From Erysipelotrichaceae bacterium (GTDB taxonomy: Bacteria; Bacillota_I; Bacilli_A; Erysipelotrichales; Erysipelotrichaceae), in assembly GCA_030536365.1 (NCBI GenBank), contig JAUNQE010000001.1:10137-74136 (forward strand): 64,000 nucleotides of DNA, written 5' to 3'. How positions within the stretch are numbered: position 1 is the first letter of the stretch; each line of letters starts with the position of its first letter. Under the pieces are notes generated by a model. The model was not told the DNA's origin. It made no database searches and saw only the letters and a program-made list of their open reading frames with translations. Positions 1 through 18,542 of the stretch are shown piece after piece. The translations under genes and the position numbers were made by a program.

Positions 1-452
1 TGGACGAAAAGGCTGTTAACTACCTGATCAAGACACCGGGCGGAAACATCTACCATTCCGGTGACTCCCACTTCTCCATCGGCTTCGCGAAGCACGGTAA
101 GGAACACGATATCGATGTTGCTTTCGGCGCATTCGGTGAAAACCCGATCGGTATCCAGGATAAGATGACATCCGTCGATATCTTAAGAATGGCGGAATCC
201 CTGCGCTGCAAGGTCGTCATCCCGATCCATCACGATATCTGGAGCAACTTCCAGGCAGATACCGAAGAGATCCGTCTCGTTTACGATTTCAAGAAACCGC
301 GCAACAACTACCAGTTCCATCCGTTCTTCTGGCAGGTCGGCGGTCAGTACACCTATCCGCAGGATAAGGACATCATGTACTACCACCATCCGCGTGGATT
401 CGAAGACTGCTTCGAGAACCCGAGAAACGTACCATTCGACTCTGTCTTATAA
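1..452 (+). CDS. ulaG: L-ascorbate-6-phosphate lactonase UlaG-type metallo-beta-lactamase, C-terminal ~150 codons (5' end outside window)
   Basis: Frame 3 is open from the window edge to TAA 450-452. The translation ([38 protein letters not shown]...HHDIWSNFQ...FWQVGG...HPRGFEDCF) is colinear with my recollection of the E. coli UlaG C-terminus. Confidence 0.85.
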
Positions 453-464: not shown

Positions 465-1268
465 ATGGCATTGATCGATGTAAAGTTATTCTCGACAACG
501 TTATTTACCAATACGGACATCCGGGTCGTCTTACCGACCCCGGATGAGCCGTTCAAACCGGACGCAAAACCTTACTATAAGGGAAAGAAATACCAGGTCC
601 TCTATCTTCTTCACGGTATGCACGGAGACTGCACCGTGTGGACCAGAAACACCGGTATCGAGCGCTATGCGCAGGAAAAATCCCTCTGTGTCGTCAGCGC
701 GTCCGTAACCAACAGCTGCTATCTGGATATGGTTCACGGCGGCAAGTTCATGACCTATATGCTCGATGAACTGCCGAAGTTTATCAATTCCACTTTCCCG
801 GTCTCAACCAGAAGAGAGGATACCTTCATCGCCGGTCTTTCGATGGGTGGTTACGGTACCTTCCGTCTGATGGGCGAGAAACCGGAAATGTTCGGCGCAG
901 CAGCCAGCCTCTCCGGCGGTCTTGATCTGACCGCACGCGAGGAAACTGGCACCTTCAAGGGTGGTCCGAGTTCCAGAATGCCGATGGAAGATATCATCGG
1001 CGACAGACAGATCAAAGGCAGTGACGATGATCTCTTCACGCTGCTGCCGCGTCTGCACAAGGAAGGAAGACTCCCGAAACTCTACCAGTGCTGCGGTACC
1101 GAAGACTTCTTATATGAAGTGAACACGCGTTTCCGCGATGCCATGCTTGCTGAAGGCATCGATTTGACCTACGAGGAATCCCCGGGAATTCATAACTGGG
1201 ATTACTGGGATCCGGCGATCCGCCGGGTGCTTGAGTGGCTGCCACTGGCCGGAACGCTTGTTGATTGA
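465..1268 (+). CDS. alpha/beta-hydrolase esterase (esterase D / putative esterase family)
   Basis: 267 aa; AAGGAG RBS at 451-456; GLSMGG nucleophile elbow; LLHG oxyanion-type motif near the N-terminus. Confidence 0.8.
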   Translation: MALIDVKLFSTTLFTNTDIRVVLPTPDEPFKPDAKPYYKGKKYQVLYLLHGMHGDCTVWTRNTGIERYAQEKSLCVVSASVTNSCYLDMVHGGKFMTYMLDELPKFINSTFPVSTRREDTFIAGLSMGGYGTFRLMGEKPEMFGAAASLSGGLDLTAREETGTFKGGPSSRMPMEDIIGDRQIKGSDDDLFTLLPRLHKEGRLPKLYQCCGTEDFLYEVNTRFRDAMLAEGIDLTYEESPGIHNWDYWDPAIRRVLEWLPLAGTLVD

Positions 1269-1276: not shown

Positions 1277-1298
1277 AGGCCGCGGTAGACCGCGGCCT
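1277..1298 (+). other. GC-rich intergenic stem-loop (9-bp stem, no U-tract)
   Basis: AGGCCGCGG-taga-CCGCGGCCT lies between the esterase stop and the aldolase-family start. It could be a transcript boundary, a stabiliser or a weak terminator. Confidence 0.4.
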
Positions 1299-1318: not shown

Positions 1319-1930
1319 ATGAACAGTATTGAATTTATTAAAGCAAAGAACGACTTCCTCGCCGCTGCGCAAAGAACTTATGAAAGCGGCATCCAGACCG
1401 GTACCGGCGGAAACCTGAGCACCAGGATCCCGGGAACGGAACTGATGATCGTAAAGCCGAGCGGCTTCACCTACGGCAGCTGCACGGAAGACAATCTCTG
1501 CATCACGGATTTTGACGGCAATCTCGTTGAAGGAAAGTTCAAACCGACCAGAGAATGCACATTGCACGGAAATCTGTATAAACGCTATCCGGAGATCGGC
1601 GGTATCGTCCATACCCACAGTGTCTATTCGATCCTCGTCTCCATGTATTTCGAACAGCTCGACCTGGTCACGCTGCACACCGAACTGAAGTTCAAGGTAC
1701 CGATGCCGGTCGTTGATGTCACAACACAGTCTGTTACACCGGAAGAACTTCCGAAAGTCTTCGCCGCGATCGATGCCAACCCGGGCATCATGGGCTTCCT
1801 GCTCAAACGTCACGGACTCGTCGCTATGGACAAAACAGCTGTCAAAGCCGGTCAGACCGCGGAGCTGATCGAAGAAACTGCTCAGATCCTCTGGGAAAAG
1901 CGTAAAATGGATCTGCTGCTTGGGAAATAA
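1319..1930 (+). CDS. class II aldolase/adducin-family protein (copy 1)
   Basis: 203 aa with GGNLS, PTRE..LH, VHTHS (metal His pair) and KRHGLVAM (third His). This is the family of FucA/AraD/UlaF/OtnC. Confidence 0.85.
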   Translation: MNSIEFIKAKNDFLAAAQRTYESGIQTGTGGNLSTRIPGTELMIVKPSGFTYGSCTEDNLCITDFDGNLVEGKFKPTRECTLHGNLYKRYPEIGGIVHTHSVYSILVSMYFEQLDLVTLHTELKFKVPMPVVDVTTQSVTPEELPKVFAAIDANPGIMGFLLKRHGLVAMDKTAVKAGQTAELIEETAQILWEKRKMDLLLGK

Positions 1931-1948
1931 TGCAGGAGGAAATCTATC

Positions 1949-2761
1949 ATGCAGGAATACACAATCACCACTCTGAACACAGGTATCGTTACTGCCAGTA
2001 AGAAAAACTATCTCTATCACAACACAACCCATAAGTACTATTTACAGCCTGGCGAAGACGACACTGCTTATCTGCCGGTAGCCTGCTTCTACATCGAAGG
2101 CAACGGCAAGAAAATCATGGTCGATACGGGCATGTCTTCCACCGAGATCGCTAACAAATACCATCATCCGGGTTCCACCCAGAGCGAAGATCAGATCGTT
2201 ACCAACCAGCTGAAGGCGATCGGTGTTGATCCTTCCGAGATCACCGATATCATCTTCACCCATCTTCACTGGGACCATGTCTACTATCTGAGCGAATTCC
2301 CGAACGCAAAACTGTATGTTCAGCGCAAGGAATACGAATACGCCAAGAACCCGATCCCGCTCTACTACAAGAGCTATGAAGATCCGCGTCTGAATATCGA
2401 ACCGCGTATCCATCCGCAGTGGGAAGGCCGCGAATTCGTCCTGCTCGATGGCGAAGCTGAGATCTTTGACGGCATCAGCGTTTATCCGACACCGGGTCAT
2501 TCCGTAGGCCATCAGAACGTTGTCGTTCATACCAAGAAGGGTGACTACCATTTAGCCGGCGACCTGATCTTCACACTGGATAACCTCAAGTCCGTTCCGG
2601 AGATCGGTTACGAGATCACACCGCCGTCCCGTTTCGTCAACATCAACGAGACCTGGAACAGTATCGTTGAACTGAAGCACCGCGCTGCCGGTCCGGAATT
2701 TGTCCTCTGTGCCCATGCACCGGAGATGCTCGAACTCGTAGGCAAGAAACTCGGCGAATAA
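1949..2761 (+). CDS. MBL-fold hydrolase, N-acyl-homoserine-lactonase (AiiA)-like lactonase family (copy 1)
   Basis: 270 aa; AGGAGG RBS; HLHWDH (HxHxDH) motif and a downstream TPGHSVGH. Confidence 0.85.
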   Translation: MQEYTITTLNTGIVTASKKNYLYHNTTHKYYLQPGEDDTAYLPVACFYIEGNGKKIMVDTGMSSTEIANKYHHPGSTQSEDQIVTNQLKAIGVDPSEITDIIFTHLHWDHVYYLSEFPNAKLYVQRKEYEYAKNPIPLYYKSYEDPRLNIEPRIHPQWEGREFVLLDGEAEIFDGISVYPTPGHSVGHQNVVVHTKKGDYHLAGDLIFTLDNLKSVPEIGYEITPPSRFVNINETWNSIVELKHRAAGPEFVLCAHAPEMLELVGKKLGE

Positions 2762-2763
2762 AA

Positions 2764-4002
2764 ATGAAAACAGTTGCGATTTTAGAATCTCTGGACACCA
2801 AGCTGGAAGAATCTCTTTTCGCAGCGGAAATGATCAATAAGCAGGGTCTCAACACCCTGCTTATTGATAACAGCACCTGGAACCTGGATGTGGGGAAGGG
2901 TGACATCCAACCGCTCGAAGTCTTGCGATATGCTTCCCTGGACCGGGATTCCTTCTCAAAGCTGAATAAACCGGAAAAGATCGCGGCCATGACTTCCGGT
3001 CTTGTGAAGCTCGTCGGTGAGCTTTATAAAGAAGGAAAGATCGATGGCATCATGTCTGTCGGCGGCGGCCAGAACGGTGCGATGGCGGCTCCGGTCATGA
3101 AGGCTCTGCCATTCGGTTTCCCGAAAGTCCTCTCTTCCGCGCTTGCCTGCGGAAGCCGTGAGATGGAGCAGTTTGTCGGCGAAAAGGATATCTTTGTCGT
3201 ACCGACGGTCGCGGATATCGCCGGACTCAACCCGATCACCAAGACGCTGATCCGTTCTGTCTGCGCAGCGATCACCGGACTTGTTAAATATGGCGAAGTC
3301 TATCATCAGACCGGCGATCATAAGATCATCGCGGCGACGATGCTTGGTGAAACCACAAAAGGTACGACAGAATCCCTGCGTCTGATCACCGAAGGCACCG
3401 ATTACGAAACCGTCGTTTTCCATGCCAATGGTGTCGGCGGACGCTGTATGGAATCTTTGATCGAAGAGGGACAGATCAACGCGGTCCTCGATTACACGAC
3501 CCATGAGATCGTCTGCGAACTCTTCGGCGGCTATTGTTCCGGCGCCAAGAACCGTCTTCTGAAATCTCTCGAATACGAGCTCCCGACCCTGGTCGTCCCG
3601 GGCGGTCTCGATATGAACGATTATTATAATGAAGAGACCGGCGCTTTCCTGCCGGCGGACTTCAAAGAACGCAAGTCGATCCTGCATAACCAGAACATCT
3701 GGCATTCCAAGATCGTTCCTGCGGAAGCGGAAAAACTCGTCGATACCGTCTGTGAAAGACTGGCGACCGCGAAAAAACCGGTCACGCTCGTCGTGCCGAC
3801 AAAAGGCGCCTGCCAGACGACTTCCTGGGGTGGACCGATCGCCGATCCCGCGATCGATGCGCTGATGGTCGAAAGATTCAGGGAAAAAGTCGCTCCCAAC
3901 ACGAAGCTCGTCGTTGTTGACGCGACAGTCAATGATCCGGAATTTGCCAAAGTCGTGGCGAATGAGTTTAAATTATTATTGGAAGCCTACGGCTGGAAAT
4001 AG
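2764..4002 (+). CDS. UPF0261 / Tm-1-like ATP-binding domain protein (copy 1)
   Basis: 412 aa. The N-terminal MKTVAILESLDTK.. and the motifs GFPKV, VGEKD and FHANGVGG are as I recall for PF06792-type proteins. The start lies 2 nt after the upstream stop. Confidence 0.8.
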   Translation: MKTVAILESLDTKLEESLFAAEMINKQGLNTLLIDNSTWNLDVGKGDIQPLEVLRYASLDRDSFSKLNKPEKIAAMTSGLVKLVGELYKEGKIDGIMSVGGGQNGAMAAPVMKALPFGFPKVLSSALACGSREMEQFVGEKDIFVVPTVADIAGLNPITKTLIRSVCAAITGLVKYGEVYHQTGDHKIIAATMLGETTKGTTESLRLITEGTDYETVVFHANGVGGRCMESLIEEGQINAVLDYTTHEIVCELFGGYCSGAKNRLLKSLEYELPTLVVPGGLDMNDYYNEETGAFLPADFKERKSILHNQNIWHSKIVPAEAEKLVDTVCERLATAKKPVTLVVPTKGACQTTSWGGPIADPAIDALMVERFREKVAPNTKLVVVDATVNDPEFAKVVANEFKLLLEAYGWK

Positions 4003-4013
4003 AGGTAAGAATT

Positions 4014-5285
4014 ATGGATGAAAAAGGATTCATGCTGCCGGAGACCGCACATAAGAAAGATGTGGTCGTAGCGACATACTATATCGAACTTCCGGTGGAA
4101 GTTGACATCATCAAGAAAGCGGAATCGCTGGCTGTCGGCCAGACGATCGGCACCTGGGTCCCGATTCCGGGCATCACCGAAGAGATTCGCGAGAAATACA
4201 TGGGAAAAGTCGTCAATATCTTCGAGGTACCGCCGACAGAACTCTCTGTATACGAAGGTGAGAAGATGGCGTATCTGATCCAGATCGCTTATCCGACCGC
4301 GAACTTCGGCAGTGATTTCCCGCTGATGATCACTTCACTTCTTGGAAACGACGCTTCCACGAGCGCGCAGGTCAAGCTGATGGACATCGAATTCAGCGAT
4401 GCCTTCCTGAGCCGTTTCAAGGGCCCGCGCTACGGTGTTGAAGGCGTGCAGAAACTCTTTGGTGTGAAGGAAAGACCGCTGCTTCTCAATATGGTCAAAC
4501 CCTGCACCGGTATCTCTCCGGAAGCCGGCGCCAATATCTTCTACGAAGCCGCTTTAGGCGGAGTCGATATCATCAAGGATGACGAGCTCTTCGGCAACCC
4601 GGTCTATTCCAAGCCGGAAGACCGTGTAAAAGCCTACAAGGCCGCAGCCCGCAAGGCAGCCGAAAAGACCGGTAAGGAAACGAAATACTTCGTCAATATC
4701 ACCGGCGGCGTATCCGAACTGAAAAAGAACATCCGCAAGGTCGAGGAAGCCGGAGCAGACGGTCTGATGGTCAACTTCGCGGTCCTGGGTTACAGCACCC
4801 TGAAGTACATCGCCGAGAATACCAGACTGCCGATCCTCGGTCACTCTGCCGGTGCCGGCATGGTCACCGAAGGTCCGCTGAACGGCATGGCAACACCGCT
4901 TGCGGTAGGCAAGCTCGCCCGTATCGCCGGCGCGGATATCGTCATGATGAATACGCCTTACGGCGGTTACCCGCTGCGCAAGCAGAAATATCTGCAGATC
5001 ATCCAGCAGCTGACACTCCCCTTAGGAAAGATCAAAGCCACGATGCCCAGCATCGGCGGCGGCGTCCATCCGGGAATCGTCAAACGCTACATCAATGAAG
5101 CCGGAAAGAATATCGTCCTGGCGGCAGGCGGCTCAATCCAGGGTCACCCGTTAGGAACGACAGCCGGCGCCAAAGCGATGCAGCAGGCGATCGACCTGGC
5201 TCTGCAGGATGTTGATTTCTGCGAAGCAGCCAAGGCATATCCGGAGCTGAGCGCCTCGCTCGACAAATGGGGCTACGTGAAATAG
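4014..5285 (+). CDS. RuBisCO large-subunit-like protein (form IV RLP)
   Basis: 423 aa. Motifs seen: IGTW, LLGN, VKPCTG, GGVDIIKDDE (K-D-D-E at nt 4575-4586), GHSAG, VGKL, SIGGGVH, AAGGSIQGHP. Confidence 0.9.
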   Translation: MDEKGFMLPETAHKKDVVVATYYIELPVEVDIIKKAESLAVGQTIGTWVPIPGITEEIREKYMGKVVNIFEVPPTELSVYEGEKMAYLIQIAYPTANFGSDFPLMITSLLGNDASTSAQVKLMDIEFSDAFLSRFKGPRYGVEGVQKLFGVKERPLLLNMVKPCTGISPEAGANIFYEAALGGVDIIKDDELFGNPVYSKPEDRVKAYKAAARKAAEKTGKETKYFVNITGGVSELKKNIRKVEEAGADGLMVNFAVLGYSTLKYIAENTRLPILGHSAGAGMVTEGPLNGMATPLAVGKLARIAGADIVMMNTPYGGYPLRKQKYLQIIQQLTLPLGKIKATMPSIGGGVHPGIVKRYINEAGKNIVLAAGGSIQGHPLGTTAGAKAMQQAIDLALQDVDFCEAAKAYPELSASLDKWGYVK

Positions 5286-5316: not shown

Positions 5317-5359
5317 AAACCTGACAACGCGCCATAATAGCATTGTCAGGTTTTTATTT
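5317..5359 (+). terminator. rho-independent terminator after the RLP gene
   Basis: AAACCTGACAA - 15-nt loop - TTGTCAGGTTT, followed by TTTTATTT. Confidence 0.7.
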
Positions 5360-5370: not shown

Positions 5371-6681
5371 ATGAAAAACAAAATGAATATGAGTGATCTG
5401 ATCCGGCGCAGCCTCTTACTGATAACAGGACTGTTCATCCTTTCCTGCGGTATCGCGCTGTCCGCCCGTTCGGGACTCGGTGTTTCACCATCCGCCTCGC
5501 TTGCCTATGTACTGAGCCAGATCTTCCCGCTTTCCATGGGCAACTTCAACACACTGATCAATGTAGTATTCGTGGTCATTCAGATCATTTTGCTGGGAAA
5601 AGCCTTCAAGCCGACCCGCTTTCTGCAGCTTCTGGCAGTCGTGATCTTTGGTTTCTTCATCGACTTCGCGAACACACTGTTCGCTTCGGTAACGCCCGCA
5701 AACTACGCCATGGCAGTTATCATGGCAGTCGTTGCCTGCGCGCTAGACGGCATCGGCGTCTTCTTCGAGGTCAAGGCAAACCTGCTGACGATGGCTTCGG
5801 AAGGCGCGATCTCGGTCATCTCCCAGAAGATCAATCAGGAATTCGGCAAGGTCAAGATCATGGTCGATTTCATTATGATCGCGATGACCACAGTGATCTC
5901 CCTGGTCGTTTTCCATAAACTGGAAGCCGTCCGTGAAGGAACGATATTGGCCGCGGTGCTCGTCGGTTTCTTTGTCGGCGTCTTCTCCCGTATCCTGAAC
6001 AAACCGGTCGATGCCTTCTTAGGCATCCGCACAAGGAAGACCACAGTTCCGGCAGAAGAGATCCCGTCCATGCCGCACGTTATCACGATCGAGCGCGAGC
6101 TTGGTTCCGGCGGTCATCGTATCGGCGAGATCCTGGCCGAAAAGCTCGGCTATGCTTTCTATGATTACGCTCTGCTTACCGAAACAGCCGCCAAGATGGG
6201 GCTGACAGTCGACGAAGTCAGCAAGGTCGAGGAGCGTAACTCCAACTCACTGCTTTATTCCTTATACCAGCAGTCCTACGTCTATTCCCAGAACCCGTCA
6301 CGGCAGCAGAAAGTCTTCGACGCGCAGTCGCAGATCATCCGCGAGATCGCCGCGAAGGAGAACTGTGTCATCGTCGGCCGTCTGGGCGCCTATGTCCTGA
6401 AGGACCGTCCGCATACCTTTGACCTTTTCGTCAGCGCCAAGCTGGAAGAAAGGGCAAAACGCTTTGCGCAGCAGAACAGCATGGATGAGAAGGAAGCGAT
6501 CGAATATGTCCGCCGCGAGGACGAATTCCGCAAGAACTACTCTTTGCAGATCACCGGCGAGACCTGGGGCATGGCCCAGCATTATGACCTCTGCGTCCGT
6601 ACCGACGAGATCGGTATCGAAGAATCTGCCGAGATGGCATTAAAGATGATCCGCGACGTTCTCGACAAGCGCGCGGCCTGA
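5371..6681 (+). CDS. fusion protein: N-terminal polytopic membrane domain (YczE/YitT-like) plus C-terminal cytidylate-kinase-like (AAA_33-type) domain
   Basis: 436 aa. The first ~215 residues are hydrophobic helices. The C-terminal half starts ITIERELGSGGHRIGEILAEKLGYAFYD, a P-loop-like GSGG that matches the 'cytidylate kinase-like family' as I recall it. Confidence 0.7.
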   Translation: MKNKMNMSDLIRRSLLLITGLFILSCGIALSARSGLGVSPSASLAYVLSQIFPLSMGNFNTLINVVFVVIQIILLGKAFKPTRFLQLLAVVIFGFFIDFANTLFASVTPANYAMAVIMAVVACALDGIGVFFEVKANLLTMASEGAISVISQKINQEFGKVKIMVDFIMIAMTTVISLVVFHKLEAVREGTILAAVLVGFFVGVFSRILNKPVDAFLGIRTRKTTVPAEEIPSMPHVITIERELGSGGHRIGEILAEKLGYAFYDYALLTETAAKMGLTVDEVSKVEERNSNSLLYSLYQQSYVYSQNPSRQQKVFDAQSQIIREIAAKENCVIVGRLGAYVLKDRPHTFDLFVSAKLEERAKRFAQQNSMDEKEAIEYVRREDEFRKNYSLQITGETWGMAQHYDLCVRTDEIGIEESAEMALKMIRDVLDKRAA

Positions 6682-6825: not shown

Positions 6826-7968
6826 ATGATTCTCCCGGAGAAATATCAATTGCTGCGAAAGAATTTCCGTAATTTTGCCGAGACCGAATTCACCGACGAG
6901 CTGCAGAAAAAGCTCGATACGGAAGGCGGCTATGAAGCGGAAATGTACCACAAGATGGCCCGTTACGGATTTACGGGGATCAAGATCCCGGTCGAGTACG
7001 GCGGCCAGGGAGGGGACTCCCTCGCCTATGTGCTGATGATCGAGGAATTTGCCCGTGTATGTCCGGTACTGGCGATCTATGCCAATACCCCGAACTCGCT
7101 GGGCGGTGGACCGCTCGTCATGTGCGGGAACGAGGAACAGAAAAAGAAATACCTGCCGGATATCGCGTCCGGCAAGAAGCACATCGTCTTTGCCCTGACC
7201 GAACCGGGCGCCGGTTCCGATGCCGGCGGCACCTTAACGACGGCTGTCGCGGACGGAGACGATTTCATCCTGAACGGAAGAAAGTGCTTTGTATCCGGCG
7301 CGCCGATCGCCGATTATGCGATCATCTATGCCAAGACCGATCTGTCCGCCAAGGGCAGCCGCGGGATCTCGATGTTCATCGTTGATCTCAAACTGCCGGG
7401 GGTCACGATCGGTAAAGCGGAAGCGAAGATGGGTATCAACGGTTACCCGACTTCCGATATCACTCTGGACAATGTCCGTGTCTCCAAGACGGACCTTCTC
7501 GGTCCGCTGAATGACGGTTTCCGGATGGCGATGAAAACACTGGACGGCGGACGTCTGGGGATCTCGGCGCAGGCTCTGGGCCTGGCGCAGGGATGTCTCG
7601 AGGAAGCGATCCGCTACGCCAAGGAACGCAAACAGTTCGGAAAACCGATCGCTGCCAACCAGGGCGTCAGTTTCATGATCGCCGACATGGCGACAGAGAT
7701 CGAAGCAGCCAGAGAGCTGATCTATCAGACAGCGATCGCCAAGGATGCCAATTCCCCGGATTCCTCGATGAAATGCGCGATGTCCAAATACTTCGCGTCC
7801 GAGATGGCAAACCGGGTCGCCTACAAAGCCGTGCAGATCTTCGGCGGCTACGGCTATATCAAAGACTACAAAGTTGAACGTTTCTACCGCGATGCGCGGA
7901 TCATGAGCATCTACGAGGGCACTTCCCAGATCCAGCAGCTGGTCATCGCCAATACGCTCTTGCGCTAG
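6826..7968 (+). CDS. acyl-CoA dehydrogenase (butyryl-CoA dehydrogenase-like, Etf-dependent)
   Basis: 380 aa; GGAGG RBS; motifs LTEPGAGSD, YEGTSQIQ and GGYGY are typical of the ACAD family. Confidence 0.9.
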   Translation: MILPEKYQLLRKNFRNFAETEFTDELQKKLDTEGGYEAEMYHKMARYGFTGIKIPVEYGGQGGDSLAYVLMIEEFARVCPVLAIYANTPNSLGGGPLVMCGNEEQKKKYLPDIASGKKHIVFALTEPGAGSDAGGTLTTAVADGDDFILNGRKCFVSGAPIADYAIIYAKTDLSAKGSRGISMFIVDLKLPGVTIGKAEAKMGINGYPTSDITLDNVRVSKTDLLGPLNDGFRMAMKTLDGGRLGISAQALGLAQGCLEEAIRYAKERKQFGKPIAANQGVSFMIADMATEIEAARELIYQTAIAKDANSPDSSMKCAMSKYFASEMANRVAYKAVQIFGGYGYIKDYKVERFYRDARIMSIYEGTSQIQQLVIANTLLR

Positions 7969-7977
7969 GAGGACGAT

Positions 7978-8778
7978 ATGAAGATCTATGTTTGTGTAAA
8001 ACAGGTCCCGGATACTTCCGGGAGAGTCGCGGTAAAGGACAACGGCGTTCTTGACCGCGCCTCCATGAAAACGATCATTAACCCCGATGACCTGAACGCG
8101 GTCGAAGCCGCGCTGCAGATCAAAGACCAGGAAGGCTGCGAGGTCATCGCGGTCACCATGGGCCCGCCGGCTGCCGAAAGCATGCTGCGGGAACTCTATG
8201 CCATGGGTGTCGATAAAGCAGTCCTGATCTCCGGACGTGAATTCGGCGGTTCCGATACCTTCGCGACCTCCCAGGTCCTGGCCGGAGGCATCCATCATCT
8301 CGGCCTGGAGAAAGAGGATATCGTATTCTGCGGCCGCCAGGCGATCGACGGCGATACCGCCCAGGTCGGTCCCCAGATCGCGGAAAAGCTGAATATCCCG
8401 CAGATCACCTACGCCGGGGAAGTCCGCTATGAAAACGGGAAAGTCTTCGTCAAACGGATGATGGAAGACGGCTATATGGAAGTGGAAGCGCAGACACCTG
8501 TCCTGATCACCTGCATCAAGGAACTCAATACGCCCCGCTACATGACGGTACGGGGGATCCTCGACTGCTTCGACAAGGAGATCACCGTACTCGATTACCC
8601 GACACTGGAGAACGAACCGCTGATCGATAAGACAACGATCGGTCTCTCCGGTTCGCCGACAACGATCTTCCAGTCCTTCACCCCGCCGGTCGCCAAGGGC
8701 GGCGAGATGCTGGAAGGAACGACACAGGAAAAATGCGATGCGCTGGCGGCAAGACTCGCCAGGAAGCAGCTGATCTAA
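7978..8778 (+). CDS. etfB: electron transfer flavoprotein beta subunit
   Basis: 266 aa. MKIYVCVKQVPDT... is a typical EtfB N-terminus. AGGAGG RBS. Confidence 0.9.
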   Translation: MKIYVCVKQVPDTSGRVAVKDNGVLDRASMKTIINPDDLNAVEAALQIKDQEGCEVIAVTMGPPAAESMLRELYAMGVDKAVLISGREFGGSDTFATSQVLAGGIHHLGLEKEDIVFCGRQAIDGDTAQVGPQIAEKLNIPQITYAGEVRYENGKVFVKRMMEDGYMEVEAQTPVLITCIKELNTPRYMTVRGILDCFDKEITVLDYPTLENEPLIDKTTIGLSGSPTTIFQSFTPPVAKGGEMLEGTTQEKCDALAARLARKQLI

Positions 8779-8787
8779 GGAGGCCAT

Positions 8788-9888
8788 ATGGAATACAACA
8801 GTGCAAAGATCGAAGACTTTCACGATATCTGGGTCTTCTGTGAACAGCGTTCCGGCAAACTGATGGAGACGGACTTCGAGCTCGTTTCCGAAGGCCGCAA
8901 ACTGGCGGATGAACGCAATGCGCAGCTCGTCGGTGTCCTCCTCGGCGCGAATGTCAAAGAGCTTGCGAAAGAGATCGGCGGCTACGGCGCCGACAAGGTC
9001 TATGTGATCGAGGATCCGGCGTTAAAAGAGTACTCTTCCGAGACCTACGCGGACGCGCTCTGCCAGATCGTCATGGACAAGAAACCGGAAGTTCTGCTGA
9101 TCGGGGCATCCACGATCGGCCGTGACCTGGCGCCGCGCTGCGCCGCCAGACTGCATACCGGTCTGACCGCGGACTGCACGCATCTTGATATCGATATGAA
9201 CAAATATCTCGACTTCCTGAAGGAAGCTTCCTCGATCGATCTTTCGACCAGGAAATTCAAGATGGAGGATACCAATCTGAAAATGACCCGTCCGGCTTTC
9301 GGCGGTCATATGATGGCAACGATCACCTGCCCGCGTTTCCGTCCCTGCATGTCGACGGTCCGTCCGGGCGTCATGAAAAAAGGCGAATACGATCCGGCGA
9401 AGGCGGAAAAACTCGTTGTTGAAGAATATCACGCGACCCTTTCTGATCCGCTGGTAAAAGTCGTGAAGATCGTTACCGAAGAAAAGAAGGGCGTTGACCT
9501 GACCGGCGCTGAGATCGTCGTCGCGGTCGGTGCCGGCATCTCCAAAGATGTGGAAAAAGGTATGGCTTTAGCCAATGAGCTTGCGGAAGTTCTGGGCGGC
9601 GGCGTCGTTGCCGGTTCCCGTCCGGCGGTCGAAGCAGGCTGGCTGGACCATGAACTGCAGATCGGGCAGACCGGTAAAACAGTCCGTCCGAAGATCTATG
9701 TCGCGCTGGGCATCTCCGGTGCGATCCAGCACAAAGCGGGAATGCAGGACTCGGAGACAGTCATCGCCGTGAACACCAATCCTTCCGCGCCGATCTTTGA
9801 AGCGGCGACCTACGGCATTGCCGGCGACCTGTTCGAAGTCGTGCCGAAGCTGATCGCTTCGATCAGAGCGGCCAAAGCAGCAAAATGA
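8788..9888 (+). CDS. etfA: electron transfer flavoprotein alpha subunit
   Basis: 366 aa; VWVFCEQR..., TRPAFGG and a C-terminal FAD-binding region (PKIYVALGISGAIQH). Confidence 0.9.
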   Translation: MEYNSAKIEDFHDIWVFCEQRSGKLMETDFELVSEGRKLADERNAQLVGVLLGANVKELAKEIGGYGADKVYVIEDPALKEYSSETYADALCQIVMDKKPEVLLIGASTIGRDLAPRCAARLHTGLTADCTHLDIDMNKYLDFLKEASSIDLSTRKFKMEDTNLKMTRPAFGGHMMATITCPRFRPCMSTVRPGVMKKGEYDPAKAEKLVVEEYHATLSDPLVKVVKIVTEEKKGVDLTGAEIVVAVGAGISKDVEKGMALANELAEVLGGGVVAGSRPAVEAGWLDHELQIGQTGKTVRPKIYVALGISGAIQHKAGMQDSETVIAVNTNPSAPIFEAATYGIAGDLFEVVPKLIASIRAAKAAK

Positions 9889-10682
9889 GCTGCTATGTGA
9901 TGGGGATCGATATCGGTTCCACGACCTCCAAAGGCGTCGTCTTAAAAGACGGCGGCGAGATCGTTTCGACCTATCTGATCCATGCCGGGACCGGCACCAA
10001 GGGTCCCGCGACCGTCAAGGAGGAGCTCTTAAAGAGTTCCGGCCTGAAGGAAGAGGAGATCGCCTATACGGTCGTTACCGGTTACGGAAGAAAGACCTAT
10101 GCCGAGGCGGACGCGCAGCTCTCCGAACTCAGCTGTCACGCCAAAGGCGCGCATTATCTCTTCCCCGAAGCCCGCACGGTCATCGATATCGGCGGACAGG
10201 ACGCCAAGGTCATGAAACTGGACGGGGAAGGAAGGATGACGGCCTTTCTGATGAATGATAAATGCGCTGCCGGCACCGGACGCTTTCTCGAGGTCATGGC
10301 AGCGATCCTGCAGCTCGATGTCTCACAGCTCGAGGAAGAGGCTGCCAAAGCAGGGGAGGCGCTCAAGATCTCAAGCACCTGCACGGTGTTTGCGGAATCG
10401 GAGGTCATCTCCCAGCTTTCCAACGGCGCCGAGATCCCGGCGCTCGTCAAAGGCATCTGCAAGTCTGTCGCCAGCCGCGTGGGCGCGCTGGCCAAACGGA
10501 TCGGCATCGAGGAAAAAGTCTGCATGAGCGGCGGCGTCGCCAACAACGGCGGCGTAAGAGACGCGCTTGCGGAAGAACTAGGAAAAGAGATCGGATACTC
10601 GCCTCTGGCGCAGCTGACAGGCGCGCTCGGGGCAGCGATCTACGCATATGAACGTGCAACGAAGGAGAGGAAAGATGGCTGA
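9885..10682 (+). CDS. 2-hydroxyacyl-CoA dehydratase activase (HgdC/HadI/FldI-type BcrAD_BadFG ATPase)
   Basis: 265 aa; GIDIGSTTSKGV, DIGGQD and CAAGTGRFLE (cluster Cys). ATGA overlap with the etfA stop. ATG 9900 is an alternative start. Confidence 0.85.
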   Translation: MSCYVMGIDIGSTTSKGVVLKDGGEIVSTYLIHAGTGTKGPATVKEELLKSSGLKEEEIAYTVVTGYGRKTYAEADAQLSELSCHAKGAHYLFPEARTVIDIGGQDAKVMKLDGEGRMTAFLMNDKCAAGTGRFLEVMAAILQLDVSQLEEEAAKAGEALKISSTCTVFAESEVISQLSNGAEIPALVKGICKSVASRVGALAKRIGIEEKVCMSGGVANNGGVRDALAEELGKEIGYSPLAQLTGALGAAIYAYERATKERKDG

Positions 10683-11916
10683 AGAAATCAAGAAACAAAG
10701 ACCGGCCCCGGATCCCAATTCTGCGAAATATAAGCTGAACATGATCGCCAAGAAGGCGTACGATGACGCGTTTGCCGCCAAGGAGCGCGGCGAGCTCGTC
10801 GGCTGGTGTTCCAGCAATTTCCCGGTCGAGATCCCGGAAACACTGGGCCTCTATGTCTGCTACCCGGAAAACCAGGCCGCCGGCATTGCTGCCCGCGGCG
10901 GCGGTGAGAGAATGTGCTCGATCGCCGAGGGACAGGGTTATTCCAACGACATCTGCGCTTATGCGCGTGTCTCGCTGGCTTACGCTTCCGGCGCTCCGGC
11001 AGAGGAGCAGCCGATGCCGCTGCCGGACTATGTCCTATGCTGCAACAATATCTGCAACTGCATGATCAAATGGTATGAGAACCTTTCAAGAGAGCTTCAT
11101 ATCCCGATGATCATGATCGATATCCCGTTCAATCCGGATTACGATGTTCCGGACGCGGAAGTTGCCTATATCAAGAACCAGTTCCTGGACGCGATCAGGC
11201 AGCTTGAAGAGATCACCGGGAAGAAGTGGAGCTGGGACCGTTACCGTGAGGTCATGGAGATCTCCGGACGCACCAGCCGCGCCTGGCTCGAGGCGACAGC
11301 TACCGCGAAATACGTGCCTTCTCCGTTCAACGGTTTCGATCTGCTGAACCACATGGCGGTCATGGTCACTGCCAGAGGCAAGCTCGAAGCGGCGGAAGCG
11401 ATGGAGACCTTATTAAAGGAATATAAGGAAAACCACGAGAAGGGCGTCAGCACCTACCGCGGCGAGGAAAAGCACCGCATCATGTTTGAAGGCATCGCCT
11501 GCTGGCCGTGGCTGCGGGTCACCGCGCACGGACTGCGCGACCGCGGCATCAACATGGTCACCACGATCTATGCCGACGCTTTCGGCTTCATCTACAAGGA
11601 CTTCGATGATATGTGCCGTGTTTACGCCAAGGTGCCGAACGCGATCAATCTCGAATACGCCAGAGACAAACGTATCAAGCTCTGCAAGGACAACCATGTG
11701 GAAGGACTGCTCGTCCATACCAACCGTTCCTGCAAGCTCTGGAGCGGCTTCATGTATGAGATGAGCCGCCAGATCGGCGAGGAATGCGATATCCCGGTCG
11801 TCAGTTTTGACGGCGACCAGGCGGATCCGCGCAACTTCTCCGAAGCGCAGTATGATACCCGTGTACAGGGACTGACAGAGATCATGCAGTCCAGAAAGGA
11901 GACTCAGAATGCTTGA
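10675..11916 (+). CDS. 2-hydroxyacyl-CoA dehydratase, large (alpha; HgdA/HadB/FldB-like) subunit
   Basis: 413 aa from the ATG preceded by AGGAGAGG; 8-nt overlap with the activase. The size and Cys-containing motifs fit the HgdA/HadB family. Confidence 0.8.
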   Translation: MAEEIKKQRPAPDPNSAKYKLNMIAKKAYDDAFAAKERGELVGWCSSNFPVEIPETLGLYVCYPENQAAGIAARGGGERMCSIAEGQGYSNDICAYARVSLAYASGAPAEEQPMPLPDYVLCCNNICNCMIKWYENLSRELHIPMIMIDIPFNPDYDVPDAEVAYIKNQFLDAIRQLEEITGKKWSWDRYREVMEISGRTSRAWLEATATAKYVPSPFNGFDLLNHMAVMVTARGKLEAAEAMETLLKEYKENHEKGVSTYRGEEKHRIMFEGIACWPWLRVTAHGLRDRGINMVTTIYADAFGFIYKDFDDMCRVYAKVPNAINLEYARDKRIKLCKDNHVEGLLVHTNRSCKLWSGFMYEMSRQIGEECDIPVVSFDGDQADPRNFSEAQYDTRVQGLTEIMQSRKETQNA

Positions 11917-13030
11917 CGATATCCTGAAGAAATTCGAAGAAGCCGCCAGACATCCGGAGCTTTTGAAGGAACGCTATCTTTCCGAAGGCAAGCAGATCGT
12001 ACTGGTCGCGCCGGTCTATACACCGGAAGAGATCGTCCATTCGATGGGATTAGTACCGATGGGCGCCTGGGGCGGCGATCTGCAGCTGCAGGAATCCAAA
12101 CGTTATTTCCCGGCCTTCATCTGCTCGATCGTGCAGTCGATCGTTGAGCTGGGCATGAAAGGCGCTTACGAAGGCGTCAGCGCCCTGATCGTTCCCTCGC
12201 TCTGCGACTCCTTAAAGGTCCTGGGTGAGAACTGGAAATACGCTGTTCCCTCGATCCCCTTTATCCCGATGACTTACCCGCAGAACCGCAAGCCGGAATA
12301 TGCCCTGGACTACACGCTCCATGGCTATGAGCGGGTCATCAGCGACCTGCAGAAAGCGACCGGCAAGGTCTTCTCCGAGAAACTGCTGCGCGTTTCCCTG
12401 CAGATCTATAACGAACACAATGAACTGATGCGCGAGACCGTTAAAGAACTCGCCGCTCATCCGGAGATCACTGCCGGGCAGCGTTCCTGGATCTTCAAGA
12501 GCGCGACCTTCTTACGCAAAGAGGAACATTCCGCGCTGCTGCGCCAGTTCCTAAAAGAACTGAAGGAACAGGAAGCAGGCGAAAGAAAACTGCGCATCGT
12601 CACCACCGGCATCCTCGCGGACGCGCCGTCACTTCTGAAGATCCTCGATGAGAACGGTCTGCAGATCGTGGCGGACGATATCGCCGCGGAAAGCCGCCAG
12701 TACAAGACGGACTGTGAGATCGGAAACGACGGACTCGTCTCCCTGGCAAAGAAATACGCTGCCAGAGACAACTGTTCAGTCCTCTATGATCCGTATAAGC
12801 GCCGTGTCGAAGCACTGGTCGAGACCGCCAAGGCTGTTGAGGCCGACGGCGTATTGATGGTCCTGACGAAGTTCTGTGATCCGGAGGAATTCGATTATCC
12901 TCTGATCCGCAATGCCTGCAACGCGGCCGGACTGCCGATCGTTGAGGTCGAAGTCGACCGCCAGATGGAGAATTACGAACAGGCGGCAACGATCATCGAA
13001 TCGTTCAAGGAAATGATGGAGAGTAAATAA
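11909..13030 (+). CDS. 2-hydroxyacyl-CoA dehydratase, small (beta; HgdB/HadC/FldC-like) subunit
   Basis: 373 aa. The start overlaps the alpha-subunit stop, with an AAGGAG RBS. It pairs with the alpha subunit as in the hgdAB/hadBC/fldBC operons. Confidence 0.8.
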   Translation: MLDDILKKFEEAARHPELLKERYLSEGKQIVLVAPVYTPEEIVHSMGLVPMGAWGGDLQLQESKRYFPAFICSIVQSIVELGMKGAYEGVSALIVPSLCDSLKVLGENWKYAVPSIPFIPMTYPQNRKPEYALDYTLHGYERVISDLQKATGKVFSEKLLRVSLQIYNEHNELMRETVKELAAHPEITAGQRSWIFKSATFLRKEEHSALLRQFLKELKEQEAGERKLRIVTTGILADAPSLLKILDENGLQIVADDIAAESRQYKTDCEIGNDGLVSLAKKYAARDNCSVLYDPYKRRVEALVETAKAVEADGVLMVLTKFCDPEEFDYPLIRNACNAAGLPIVEVEVDRQMENYEQAATIIESFKEMMESK

Positions 13031-14278
13031 ATGAGTGAATACAATACACGCCCGTTAGAGGGCATCAAGATCGTTGAACTGGCTACATTCATTGCCGCGC
13101 CCTGCTGCGCCCGCTATCTTGCGGACCTGGGCGCCGATGTCATCAAGGTCGAACGTCCCAAAGGCGACGATCTGCGTTTTACCGCGGTCAACGAAGGACG
13201 TCCCTTCGGCGATAAGGAGGATACGAGCTTCACTCTGGAAAATACCGGCAAGCGCTGCGTCACCCTCGACACCAAGAGCGCGGCCGGCCGTGAGGCTCTT
13301 GAAAAGCTCATCGCCAACGCCGATATCTTTTTGACCAACTGGCGTCAGCCGGCTCTTGAAAGAGCGGGTCTGGATTACGATACATTAAAAGTCAAATACC
13401 CCAAACTCGTCTATGGCATCGTTTCCGGTTACGGCGAGAAGGGACCGGACAAGGATCTGCCGGGCTTTGACTTCACCGCTTACTTCGCCCATTCCGGTGT
13501 CATGGGAACCCTCTATGACAAAGGCAGCGAGCCGATGATGCCGCTGGCCGGCTTCGGTGACCATCAGGTCGCGATGAGCCTGGCTTCCGGTGTTCTGGCT
13601 GCTCTCTACCGCGCGGAAAAGACCGGCCGCGGCGATAAGGTCGTCGTCAGCCTGTACCACAGCGGTGTATGGGATGTCTCCTTATATCTGATCGCCAGCC
13701 AGTATGGCGACAAATCCACCCAGTATCCGATCCGCAAGGCGGAACTGACTAACCCCCTGAACTCTGCCAGAAGAACGTCCGATGACCGCTGGTTCATGTT
13801 CTCGGTACCGGCATATGACAAACTCTTCAATAAGTTTGTCGCGGAAGCACTGAACCGTCCGGACCTTGTCAACGATCCGCGTTTCTATCCGCAGACGAAT
13901 CTCGTCAACGGCCATCTCGATGAATGGGACGCGCTGTTCAACGCGGAAGTCGCCAAGCACGATGTCAATTACTGGATCGCCCAGATGAAGAAGGCCGACC
14001 TGCCGTTTGCCGTCTGCCAGACCTGGGATGAGATCCTGAAGGATGAGCAGGCGTTCGCCAGCGATATCTTAACGGAAGTCACCTTCCCCAACGGCAACAA
14101 ACGGACGATGGTTCGCACCCCGGTCATGTTCCAGGATACGGAACTGCCGGAATACAAACCGGCGCATTTCCTGGGCCAGGATACCCGCGAAGTCCTCGCG
14201 GAACTGGGTTACAGCGAAGCGCAGATCGACGCGATGATCGCGGCCGGTGAAGCAACAGACACTGTCCGCATCGGTTAA
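13031..14278 (+). CDS. family III CoA-transferase (CaiB/BaiF; HadA/FldA-like)
   Basis: 415 aa. PLEGIKIVELATFIAAPCCARYLADLGADVIKVE is the typical family III N-terminus. Confidence 0.85.
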   Translation: MSEYNTRPLEGIKIVELATFIAAPCCARYLADLGADVIKVERPKGDDLRFTAVNEGRPFGDKEDTSFTLENTGKRCVTLDTKSAAGREALEKLIANADIFLTNWRQPALERAGLDYDTLKVKYPKLVYGIVSGYGEKGPDKDLPGFDFTAYFAHSGVMGTLYDKGSEPMMPLAGFGDHQVAMSLASGVLAALYRAEKTGRGDKVVVSLYHSGVWDVSLYLIASQYGDKSTQYPIRKAELTNPLNSARRTSDDRWFMFSVPAYDKLFNKFVAEALNRPDLVNDPRFYPQTNLVNGHLDEWDALFNAEVAKHDVNYWIAQMKKADLPFAVCQTWDEILKDEQAFASDILTEVTFPNGNKRTMVRTPVMFQDTELPEYKPAHFLGQDTREVLAELGYSEAQIDAMIAAGEATDTVRIG

Positions 14279-14288
14279 TAGAAAAATT

Positions 14289-15887: not shown

Positions 15888-16569
15888 GCTTCAGGAACGT
15901 TCTCTGATCAGCAGCGAGGAGATCTATCAGGATCTTCTGAAAAAGATCATCGACACCGAATACCTGCCGGGCGACGCGCTCAGTGAGAATGAGCTGTGCG
16001 CCATCTACAACTGTTCCCGGCATATGGTGCGCGGAGCTTTCGCGACCCTGAAGGAAAAGGGACTGCTGGAGGTCTATCCCCAGCGGGGAAGCTTCGTTTC
16101 TCTGATCGACCTCAAAAAGATCGCGGATATCCTGTTTCTGCGTGAGGCGGCAGAGACGACGGCCGCCATGCAGATCATTGAGAAGGATGATGATATCGAA
16201 GAACTGGTCGTTCTCCTGGAGAAGACGATCAGTGAGCAGAAGAAGGCCTATGCCAAAGGCGGCAGCCATCTTCAGGAATACTTTCACGCAGATGACCTGT
16301 TCCACCAGGTACTGCTCGATAAAGCCGGCCGCGGCGGGATCGAAACGATCCTGGGTGATGCCTATATGCATCTGCGCCGCTGGCGGAATCTCGAGATCAA
16401 GACGACAGGCCGCGTTCCCGGCCTGATCGAGGAACATCAGGCGATCGCCGAGGCGATCGCGAAAAGAGATGTCCCGAAGACCGTGAAACTGCTGCACGCG
16501 CATTTTGACACGGTCAAATATGCCGCGTCGGTCGACGAGGGACGGGACAACTCCTATTTTTACCGCTAA
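15880..16569 (+). CDS. GntR-family transcriptional regulator (FadR/FCD-type)
   Basis: 229 aa. The N-terminal wHTH (LSENELCAIYNCSRHMVRGAFATLKEKGLL) precedes a helical FCD-like C-terminal domain. AAGGAG RBS; 8-nt overlap with the ligase. Confidence 0.85.
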   Translation: MNKLQERSLISSEEIYQDLLKKIIDTEYLPGDALSENELCAIYNCSRHMVRGAFATLKEKGLLEVYPQRGSFVSLIDLKKIADILFLREAAETTAAMQIIEKDDDIEELVVLLEKTISEQKKAYAKGGSHLQEYFHADDLFHQVLLDKAGRGGIETILGDAYMHLRRWRNLEIKTTGRVPGLIEEHQAIAEAIAKRDVPKTVKLLHAHFDTVKYAASVDEGRDNSYFYR

Positions 16570-16610
16570 AGGAAATAACGTTCTGCTATTCGGAAGGGAG
16601 GATTTATATA

Positions 16611-18389: not shown

Positions 18390-18405
18390 TCCATCTGAAA
18401 GACGT

Positions 18406-18442
18406 AAAAAGACTGTTGCTGAAGGTGACAGTCTATTCTTTC
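18406..18442 (+). terminator. probable terminator after the hydrolase gene
   Basis: GACTGT..ACAGTC hairpin followed by TATTCTTTC. A second hairpin, CCGGTTTTT-N14-AAAAACCGG, lies at 18444-18475. Confidence 0.5.
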
Positions 18443-18542
18443 GCCGGTTTTTAAGGAAAAGAGGGGAAAAACCGGAAAATCGGAGAGGGATTTCAGAAAA
18501 TCACCCGTTTAAAGCTGTTACAGAATGCATTAATACGTAAAA

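Follow-up and report, generated by a model that had tools for sequence, protein, structure and literature searches.

The 64-kb window analysed here (64,000 nucleotides of contig JAUNQE010000001.1, from an Erysipelotrichaceae bacterium living in the gut of goat or sheep) carries a cluster of four genes encoding a short class II aldolase-family protein (referred to below as aldolase-like), an AiiA-like metallo-beta-lactamase-fold hydrolase (MBL), a protein of the UPF0261 family and a form IV RuBisCO-like protein (RLP). The reading that we favour, with a probability of about 0.45, is that the cluster encodes a catabolic route in which a lactone or ester would be converted, via UPF0261, into an acid-sugar phosphate, and the latter, by the RLP and the aldolase-like enzyme, into a ketose phosphate. 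The cluster probably represents an acid-sugar pathway in which an RLP of an uncharacterised clade is combined with a new family of kinases, and a route that is undescribed: no description of an RLP-UPF0261 cluster was found in the full-text literature, with key subscription papers outside our reach, so that an earlier description is possible. The substrate, the order of the steps and the way in which decarboxylation and isomerisation are split between the RLP and the aldolase-like enzyme are what we infer within this scheme.

The linkage of the four families exceeds chance. They co-occur, in varying order, in at least eight distinct loci, in Erysipelotrichaceae, Roseburia, Bariatricus, Herbinix and Paenibacillus, and the triad of MBL, UPF0261 and aldolase-like genes is present in eight of the ten distinct loci whose RLP is at least 60% identical to that of the window. 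Identity matrices resolve two paralogous versions of the triad, with between-type identity of 33-50%. Type 1 is carried by the cluster in question (cluster 1), by a Lachnospiraceae genome (locus L099), by Treponema socranskii and by Sphaerochaeta, and type 2 by a second cluster in the same window (cluster 2), by Roseburia hominis, Bariatricus massiliensis and Herbinix. One arrangement, found in other Erysipelotrichaceae (RLP 76-89% identical to that of the window), is the type-1 order of ATP-binding cassette (ABC) transporter-UlaG-esterase-aldolase-like-MBL-UPF0261-RLP. Another, found in R. hominis and B. massiliensis (RLP 66% and 63%, respectively), is ABC transporter-MBL-UPF0261-aldolase-like-GntR-RLP. 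In Herbinix (61%), genes for an RpiB-type isomerase and a triose-phosphate-isomerase family enzyme (TIM) are embedded in a single operon of the order MBL-UPF0261-RpiB-TIM-aldolase-like-GntR-RLP, and Paenibacillus pasadenensis (56%) has the order UPF0261-RLP-TIM-aldolase-like-...-MBL. As Roseburia, Bariatricus and Herbinix combine the type-2 cluster with the RLP, the linkage of MBL, UPF0261, aldolase-like enzyme and RLP outlasts the shuffling of gene order across families.

Cluster 2 was recognised through tblastn searches of the cluster proteins against the window and is located approximately 10 kb downstream of cluster 1 (Table 1); neither this paralogous cluster nor the link to RpiB and TIM had featured in the first-pass annotation of this DNA. 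It is syntenic with the RLP-ending clusters of Roseburia and Bariatricus, and its RpiB and TIM are, respectively, 93% identical to the RpiB encoded directly 3' of the RLP in the related locus L087 and 73% identical to the TIM encoded behind the RLP-RpiB pair in that same locus. In some Erysipelotrichaceae, RpiB and TIM genes directly follow, or converge on, the type-1 operon, in one case (L095) along with a split transketolase, and among the 20 loci with RLPs of at least 51% identity to that of the window, about 13 have RpiB and/or TIM next to the RLP. The divergence of the window RLP from the Lachnospiraceae RLPs (61-66% identity) parallels that of the window type-2 genes from their counterparts there (62-74%), which suggests that the RLP is tied ancestrally to the type-2 module and that Erysipelotrichaceae are the only group in which it closes a type-1 operon.

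This parallel divergence, along with the identical position of the RLP gene, after GntR, in three Lachnospiraceae genera, argues against the view that the RLP is a general ketose-phosphate isomerase or epimerase, or a metabolite-repair enzyme, loosely attached to a triad that is complete on its own. The retention of the triad within the operon in eight of the ten loci with close RLPs argues likewise, and so does the finding that, across phyla, at least 31 of 80 loci have UPF0261 no more than about 5 kb away from the RLP. We consider this view unlikely, even though a number of observations favour it: type-1 triads without an RLP are found in three lineages, Treponema, Sphaerochaeta and Lachnospiraceae L099, the type-2 triad of the window has no RLP gene adjacent to it, and the neighbours of the RLP in the wider clade are very heterogeneous. 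The two exceptions among the ten loci point the same way. In Solobacterium (RLP 84%), the RLP gene stands with AraD alone, being preceded by a gene for a true L-ribulose-5-phosphate 4-epimerase (UlaF/AraD; TIGR00760 402.6 versus 389.1; 62% identity to Escherichia coli UlaF), and in Tepidanaerobacter (RLP 61%) it is the last gene of a glycerol operon, whose FGGY-family kinase is a true glycerol kinase (GlpK 752.9 versus 498). We also considered an erythritol-type reading, built on an FGGY kinase, a GlpD-like dehydrogenase, a SorC regulator and the RLP as a substitute for EryC; it is weakened by this true glycerol kinase and by a glycerol facilitator found in another RLP locus of the FGGY/GlpD-like kind.

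The triads without an RLP have partners of their own. Those of Treponema and Sphaerochaeta are accompanied by a GntP-type permease, a GntR/FCD regulator and a second aldolase-family gene, the permease being called from a Pfam GntP_permease match in Sphaerochaeta and from the protein sequence alone in Treponema, and that of Lachnospiraceae L099 by an ABC transporter, an FGGY kinase, a SorC regulator, UlaG and an esterase. In T. socranskii (locus L097), a 464-aa protein with no Pfam or PDB match is encoded in the place of the RLP (12707-14101), and after it come a second gene of the class II aldolase family and a second one for an MBL. The possibility of this protein being a divergent RLP was rejected, as it looks like a hydrophobic multi-pass membrane permease, and its counterpart in Sphaerochaeta matches Pfam GntP_permease.

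A crude neighbourhood analysis of the wider clade, covering 80 genome loci with RLPs of 41-100% identity, reveals, next to UPF0261, PEP-hydrolase-like proteins (PF09370) in 28-30 loci and SorC regulators in 20, followed by RpiB, TIM, FGGY kinases and GlpD-like dehydrogenases (11 each), MBL (9), and Aldolase_II, Amidohydro_2 and ComB-like phosphatases (8 each); a metagenome scan with UPF0261 yielded nine loci. Given the count for UPF0261, its association with the RLP is a general one. It had been proposed for this DNA that the RLP, as a TIM-barrel protein, replaces the PEP-hydrolase that usually partners UPF0261. While no PEP-hydrolase is encoded in the window, the proposal does not hold, since the same UPF0261 subtype occurs with neither partner in Treponema, Sphaerochaeta, L099 and cluster 2; such a replacement is also at odds with lineages in which RLP, PEP-hydrolase and UPF0261 are present together. 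UPF0261 seems instead to pair with several TIM-barrel families, the PEP-hydrolase being its partner in about 30 loci. URO-D/MtaA-like TIM-barrel proteins are encoded beside UPF0261 and RLP in two Chloroflexota loci (L030, L031) and two Acetobacterium loci (L074, L078), with UPF0261-UROD pairs arranged twice in tandem among these. Yet another set of lactonase, UPF0261, RLP, RpiB and TIM, with different hydrolases, is encoded in Diplocloster species (L013-L015), in which two arylsulfotransferase genes and a CitMHS-type transporter gene are located upstream of RLP-Amidohydro_2-PEP_hydrolase-UPF0261-MBL-RpiB-TIM-ADH.

As to the RLP itself, it has the hallmarks of form IV, with both RuBisCO_large domains present, a carbamylatable Lys and an Asp/Glu metal site retained, and RuBP-specific residues replaced. 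We aligned 198 members of its clade with a form I large subunit, Priestia MtnW and Rhizobium OiaX, setting the RuBisCO numbering by known motifs. The window RLP retains K162 (K175 in RuBisCO), K188/D190/E191 (the carbamate/metal triad K201/D203/E204), H277 (H294), T65 and W66, as well as the glycines of the P1 phosphate site, G381, G403 and G404, and it has lost R295, H298 and H327 of the P2 site; the substitutions with respect to RuBisCO are E60G, K177C, R295S, H298A, H327M, K334G and S379G. Two further positions mark the clade: Asn at N123 (Asn112 in the window RLP) in 195 of the 198 members, where Priestia MtnW has Lys and OiaX has Gly, and Cys at K177 (C164) in 196 of them. The P1 site being kept and the P2 site lost, the substrate is probably a monophosphorylated keto compound, with its phosphate bound in the P1 pocket.

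By NCBIfam models, the best match of the RLP is MtnW (PRK09549 341.7 versus a cut-off of 409; TIGR03332 299.2 versus 513.6), followed by form III RuBisCO and then OiaX (197.9 versus 700), all below the cut-offs, and by PDB searches MtnW enzymes are also nearest (about 1e-80; 2OEK 9e-80), before form III RuBisCOs and other RLP structures; identity is 36% to Priestia MtnW and approximately 30% to OiaX. A bona fide RuBisCO of forms I-III was rejected, with K177, R295, H298, H327, K334 and S379 all substituted and form I/III scores below cut-off, as were MtnW, given the scores below both cut-offs, the Asn at N123 and the lack of mtn neighbours, and OiaX, given its score and the lack of an adjacent DUF1537 kinase. 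The catalytic base of MtnW is reportedly a Lys at the N123 position, presumably Lys98 in the Geobacillus kaustophilus enzyme. Statements below on the absence of mtn, DUF1537, UlaD and UlaE genes apply to the window together with flanks of up to 10 kb around each related locus. No mtnX, mtnB, mtnD, mtnK or mtnA was found in the window cluster or in the called neighbourhoods of close relatives, while mtnX is adjacent in a true MtnW reference locus; a tblastn search with OiaK, the DUF1537 kinase, detected no homologue either in the window or among the RLP loci retrieved, matching only its own source, the OiaX reference locus L092. The first-pass annotation, which had noted the missing mtn and DUF1537 partners, is borne out by gene context, and scores and active-site residues place the RLP outside the MtnW and OiaX groups, in a distinct form IV clade.

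The proposal that UPF0261 may act as a kinase, also part of that annotation, is strengthened by recent data. Tomato Tm-1, then named as the only studied relative, is no longer so: MarK of Novosphingobium aromaticivorans, the one characterised enzyme of the UPF0261 family, for which the first catalytic activity of this family was reported in 2025, is an ATP-dependent kinase acting on acetovanillone and related phenols after an E16K change, residue 16 being the equivalent of the ATP-contact Lys20 of Tm-1 (PMC12624787). In the window protein, whose best PDB matches are Tm-1 (7e-42) and MarK (9MPY, 1e-40), D11-T12-K13, G195, H220 and H308 align with D14-T15-K16, G195, H219 and H304 of MarK, and K13, G195, H220 and H308 are conserved in 55-56 of 56 homologues. 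The ATP-site Lys that had to evolve in MarK is therefore native here, in line with a putative ATP-dependent kinase. The aromatic pocket of MarK (F283, I285, H348) is not kept in the window protein, which has M284, D286 and T352 in columns that are variable among the 56 homologues. None of the four cluster-1 proteins reaches a function-specific NCBIfam equivalog cut-off, and UPF0261 only clears that of an uncharacterised 'hypothetical protein' subfamily (PRK02399.1-2; 339.1 versus 335). The family assignments made at first pass are, for all four proteins, upheld by Pfam and NCBIfam.

The remaining two enzymes have complete active sites. In the MBL, the binuclear site, HxHxDH (H105, H107, D109, H110) plus H184, D205 and H256, is kept in 24-25 of 25 homologues, and the nearest models are all lactonases, at scores below cut-off (AiiA 92.4 versus 375, AttM 82.4 versus 390, 4-pyridoxolactonase 76 versus 325), as are the top PDB matches. 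In the aldolase-like protein, E79, H98, H100, H165 and the GTGGN motif (Glu, Zn ligands, phosphate loop) are invariant in 16 homologues, and matches scatter over AraD, MtnB, FucA and OtnC models without reaching a cut-off (PRK06557 105.4 versus 251, the best; MtnB 86.9 versus 137, second; OtnC 80.2 versus 250). Its best PDB match is 6BTD, which we take to be the 5-deoxyribulose-1-phosphate aldolase of Bacillus thuringiensis. The CUT2-type sugar-binding proteins of the two clusters resemble binders of pentoses and polyols, that of cluster 1 being nearest to the structures 4RS3, 5HKO and 4RSM (E about 1e-29), presumably xylitol/threitol binders of Mycobacterium smegmatis, with no NCBIfam equivalog reached that would define its specificity.

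Such matches, to MtnW for the RLP, to MtnB and 6BTD for the aldolase-like protein and to pentose/polyol binders for the transporter, could be taken to indicate a route resembling methionine salvage or the dihydroxyacetone phosphate (DHAP) shunt, acting on a neutral pentose or deoxypentose. UPF0261 would then make a sugar phosphate, RpiB/TIM-type isomerases a ketose-1-phosphate, the aldolase-like protein would be a dehydratase (as MtnB) or an aldolase (as DrdA), the RLP would enolise or isomerise (as MtnW or the Rhodospirillum rubrum RLP), and the MBL would be a late hydrolase. We find this very unlikely, as Asn nearly always occupies the position of the catalytic Lys reported for MtnW, mtnK, mtnA, mtnX and mtnD are missing, and the MtnW and MtnB cut-offs are not attained. 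In addition, the nearest relatives of the MBL are all lactonases, and UlaG, GntP and GntR/FCD are indicative of an acidic lactone.

The wider operon provides the best clue to the nature of such a lactone. The four genes had been described as lying on one strand with gaps of 18, 2 and 11 nt, which we confirm; three of them are preceded by a Shine-Dalgarno-like sequence, the UPF0261 gene starting 2 nt past the MBL stop codon. They do not constitute a self-contained operon, as had been assumed, and by gene order are the distal part of an operon of about ten genes. On the near-identical contig JAFRLM010000007 (RLP 100% identical, other proteins 96-99%), the order is CUT2 sugar-binding protein, permease, double ATPase, permease, UlaG (368 aa), esterase, aldolase-like protein, MBL, UPF0261 and RLP, with a divergent gene for an FGGY kinase upstream, so that UPF0261, previously named as the only candidate for an ATP-using enzyme, has a competitor outside the window; the relative of this kinase in L099 is XylB-like, with a score below cut-off. 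The upstream genes ulaG and esterase, reported earlier with ulaG as truncated, are both present, and ulaG is not truncated, only cut by the start of the window. Of the 355 positions in the NCBIfam UlaG profile, the fragment covers 261-355, and its identity to E. coli UlaG is 64%; the full-length protein from a sister contig (L006; 57% identity to E. coli UlaG) clears the L-ascorbate-6-phosphate lactonase equivalog by a wide score (592.8 versus 306). The position of the esterase gene between ulaG and the aldolase-like gene is kept in L002, L087 and L095. An esterase-ulaG pairing is echoed in E. coli K-12 (L111, 453-1202), in which the carboxylesterase gene yjfP adjoins ulaR and ulaG, tblastn detecting no homology between yjfP and the window esterase.

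Two RNA structures flank the four genes, and both are real in that they fold far better than shuffled sequence. The one 3' of the RLP gene, a stem with a U-tract, looks like an intrinsic terminator, even if it is not listed by a simple terminator scan. The other, GGCCGCGG-TAGA-CCGCGGCC, occurs once in the window and has no U-tract. It is shared, in the same position, by the close relatives L002, L007 and L100 (in L002, one pair has gone from G-C to A-T, both arms being altered), and is missing from the slightly more distant L087 and L095, in which the gap between esterase and aldolase-like genes is only 8-11 nt. For these two reasons, no U-tract and absence from relatives, the hairpin does not mark an independent operon, contrary to its original description as an operon boundary; it could be a partial terminator or internal attenuator, or an RNA-stability element, tuning the proximal versus the distal half of the operon.

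The UlaG orthologue, the absence of UlaD and UlaE homologues from the 64-kb window and every fetched locus (tblastn, E<=1e-5) and the AraD gene next to the Solobacterium RLP point to an ascorbate-type lactone, and the GntP-type permease and GntR/FCD regulator of the spirochaetes fit an anionic substrate. The scheme would be as follows. The CUT2 ABC transporter would import a sugar lactone already carrying a carbonyl or an enediol, without adding a phosphate on entry, an acyl group, if present, would be stripped by the esterase, and the ring would be opened by the AiiA-like MBL in the case of a free lactone, or by UlaG in the case of a phosphorylated one. As compact versions of the cluster encode no oxidoreductase, the imported substrate must already be oxidised, and as uptake would not involve a phosphotransferase system (PTS), a soluble kinase is needed; UPF0261 would provide the ATP-dependent phosphorylation for which classical Ula metabolism relies on the PTS. 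The 3-keto acid-sugar phosphate formed in this way would be converted by two metal-enediolate enzymes, the RLP and the aldolase-like protein, which jointly would perform the decarboxylation and the epimerisation/isomerisation carried out in E. coli by UlaD and UlaE (and UlaF). The product, a ketose phosphate, would enter central metabolism via RpiB and TIM, encoded nearby, and, in one relative, also via transketolase, exiting to the pentose-phosphate pathway. The foremost candidate for the substrate is L-ascorbate, or a close analogue or ester; the ascorbate-specific version of the scheme is in itself rather unlikely.

A number of points weigh against our reading of the cluster. The evidence for the pathway consists of sequence, gene context and the MarK literature, the choice of substrate being a guess. 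The type-1 cluster alone has UlaG and the esterase, while the clusters that carry the RLP most consistently, those of Roseburia, Bariatricus and Herbinix, are without UlaG, and the RLP is not obligatory for the module, considering the type-1 triads that lack it. Two enzymes, the RLP and the aldolase-like protein, would have to cover three Ula steps, and a lactonase in an organism importing its substrate by GntP makes sense only if the anion itself is a lactone. The more remote relatives within the RLP clade (41-61% identity) are found in glycerol-type operons, or with PEP-hydrolase, UPF0261 and ComB, and clearly belong to other pathways; given these heterogeneous neighbours, the clade is probably not isofunctional. 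Lastly, the P1 site, being retained, suggests that the phosphate adjoins the carbonyl that reacts, which is the case for MtnW substrates and fits ketose-1-phosphates better than 3-keto-L-gulonate-6-phosphate.

The P1 site is among the reasons to consider a different acid-sugar lactone, such as a C5 keto- or enediol-lactone. In such a case, a 3-keto-acid phosphate would be decarboxylated to a tetrulose phosphate (as OiaX forms L-erythrulose-1-phosphate), and the latter to erythrose-4-phosphate by the TIM- and RpiB-like isomerases, with the RLP acting as a decarboxylase or, by analogy with EryC, as a tetrulose-phosphate racemase. The P1 pocket would suit compounds that have their phosphate alpha to the carbonyl, such as erythrulose-1-phosphate and the 3-oxo-acid-4-phosphates, RpiB and TIM recur beside the RLP, and the nearest solved relatives of the cluster-1 binding protein are presumably xylitol/threitol binders. 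TIM/RpiB pairs are established as tetrulose-phosphate isomerases in Brucella and M. smegmatis. The window RpiB does match the D-erythrulose-4-phosphate isomerase model, but below its cut-off (123.6 versus 240), passing instead the generic RpiB subfamily model, and the TIM of the window clears the cut-off of the ordinary TpiA equivalog (303.1 versus 293). The RLP/TIM locus of Tepidanaerobacter being a true glycerol operon, the TIM there may simply handle DHAP, and UlaG points to a C6, ascorbate-type intermediate. We know of no abundant C5 lactone substrate in the gut, and hold the probability of such a pathway to be low.

Comparisons with characterised systems place the proposed acid-sugar lactone route close to several of these without matching any. 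MtnW/YkrW shares with the window RLP the fold, the carbamate-Lys/Asp/Glu metal site, K175, H294 and the P1 glycines, and differs in having Lys at N123 and Val at K177 in place of Asn and Cys, in its mtn neighbours and in its hosts, the hosts of the window RLP being strict anaerobes. The D-apionate pathway (OiaX/OiaC and OiaK) is alike in that an acid sugar from a plant lactone is phosphorylated, an RLP acts on the 3-oxo-acid phosphate and an ABC transporter belongs to the cluster. However, OiaX has Gly, Ala and Lys at N123, K177 and K334, where the window clade has Asn, Cys and Gly, the D-apionate kinase is a DUF1537 protein, encoded adjacently in the reference OiaX locus, for which UPF0261 would stand in here, and an ApnO-type dehydrogenase is missing. 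With the Ula pathway of E. coli, the cluster shares the UlaG orthologue, an aldolase-like protein 29% identical to UlaF and the predicted pentose-phosphate exit. It differs in using an ABC transporter rather than the UlaABC PTS, in lacking detectable UlaD and UlaE, and in having the AiiA-like MBL, UPF0261, RLP and esterase beyond the Ula set. MarK is of the same two-domain family and likewise has no PEP-hydrolase partner, its context being lignin aromatics rather than sugar catabolism, and its aromatic pocket residues being different. OtnK/OtnC similarly combine a kinase with a short class II aldolase-family enzyme acting on a phosphorylated 3-oxo acid, and the OtnC model is among the better matches of the aldolase-like proteins (80-122 bits), albeit far below the cut-off of 250, while a DUF1537 kinase, OtnI and an LtnD/DenD dehydrogenase are all missing here.

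The number of known RLP reactions is small, and every addition has brought unexpected metabolism to light and informed ideas on the evolution of RuBisCO chemistry. The RLP of this clade may decarboxylate or epimerise a 3-keto acid-sugar phosphate derived from ascorbate. It is a tentative, somewhat doubtful proposition that the clade, with its Asn at N123 and invariant Cys at K177, catalyses a reaction new to the RuBisCO superfamily, as part of a vitamin-C-type lactone pathway independent of PTS, UlaD and UlaE, widespread in Firmicutes of the gut and rumen, and having UPF0261 as the committed kinase. If true, this would be the first physiological role in carbohydrate metabolism for the very widespread UPF0261 family. 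The cluster links RLP and UPF0261 to the probable breakdown of sugar lactones in anaerobes that abound in gut and rumen, and could reveal how anaerobes without a PTS consume ascorbate-like plant compounds; with cultivable carriers such as R. hominis and B. massiliensis, the functions of both families are directly testable.

Table 1. Features of the window discussed in the text, with positions counted from its first nucleotide
Feature	Position	Strand	Evidence or remark
ulaG, 3' part (open frame from base 3; gene cut by window start)	1-452	+	UlaG profile, tblastn
PF00756 esterase	465-1268	+	Pfam Esterase E 1.6e-18
GC-rich hairpin between esterase and aldolase-like genes	1278-1297	+	dG -20.6 kcal/mol, z -3.4
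Aldolase-like gene, class II aldolase family, type 1	1319-1930	+	203 aa; Pfam Aldolase_II 1e-34
MBL gene, AiiA-like binuclear hydrolase, putative lactonase, type 1	1949-2761	+	270 aa; Lactamase_B 6e-26
UPF0261 gene, putative ATP-dependent kinase, type 1	2764-4002	+	412 aa; PF06792 1.8e-45, PF23189 2.5e-59
RLP gene, form IV, uncharacterised clade	4014-5285	+	423 aa; PF02788 1.4e-9, PF00016 3.2e-43
Terminator-like stem-loop with U-tract, 3' of RLP gene	5317-5359	+	sequence and fold, z -3.45
YczE/DUF6198 membrane domain fused to cytidylate-kinase-like domain	5371-6681		436 aa
2-Hydroxyacyl-CoA dehydratase module	6826-15887
BcrAD-type activase, within module	9885-10682
HadB-like dehydratase subunits, within module	10648-11916, 11909-13030
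CoA transferase, within module	13031-14278
Acyl-CoA ligase, within module	14247-15887
Cluster 2, whole	15880-28238		tblastn of cluster proteins
GntR/FCD regulator, head of cluster 2	15880-16569	+	Pfam GntR, FCD
CocE/NonD-family (Peptidase_S15) hydrolase/esterase, cluster 2	16611-18389	+	NCBIfam CocE_NonD 197.5 versus cut-off 66.3
CUT2-type sugar ABC transporter, cluster 2	18652-23296	+	Pfam Peripla_BP_4; tblastn 28-41% to cluster-1 transporter
Binding protein of this transporter	18652-19791	+
ATPase of this transporter	19870-21378	+
Permeases of this transporter	21378-22328, 22343-23296	+
MBL-fold hydrolase, type 2	23326-24207	+	Lactamase_B; 43% to type 1, 64-68% to Roseburia/Bariatricus MBLs
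UPF0261, type 2	24262-25536	+	both Pfam domains; 35% to type 1, 70-74% to Roseburia/Bariatricus
Class II aldolase-family enzyme, type 2	25539-26144	+	Aldolase_II; 48% to type 1, 71-74% to Roseburia/Bariatricus
GntR/FCD regulator	26183-26947	+	Pfam; RLP gene comes next in Roseburia, Bariatricus, Herbinix
RpiB/LacAB-family sugar-phosphate isomerase	27014-27457	+	NCBIfam RpiB subfamily 138 versus cut-off 135
Triose-phosphate-isomerase family enzyme	27459-28238	+	Pfam TIM; TpiA model; ATG at 27459

Just past the terminator, an unusual protein is encoded in which a YczE/DUF6198 membrane domain is fused to a cytidylate-kinase-like domain; the fusion is kept 3' of the RLP gene in the closest relatives only. 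The interval between this gene and cluster 2 is filled by a 2-hydroxyacyl-CoA dehydratase module, starting with genes for an acyl-CoA dehydrogenase and EtfB/EtfA, followed by the activase, dehydratase and CoA genes, a module that likely serves fermentation of amino acids or 2-hydroxyacids.

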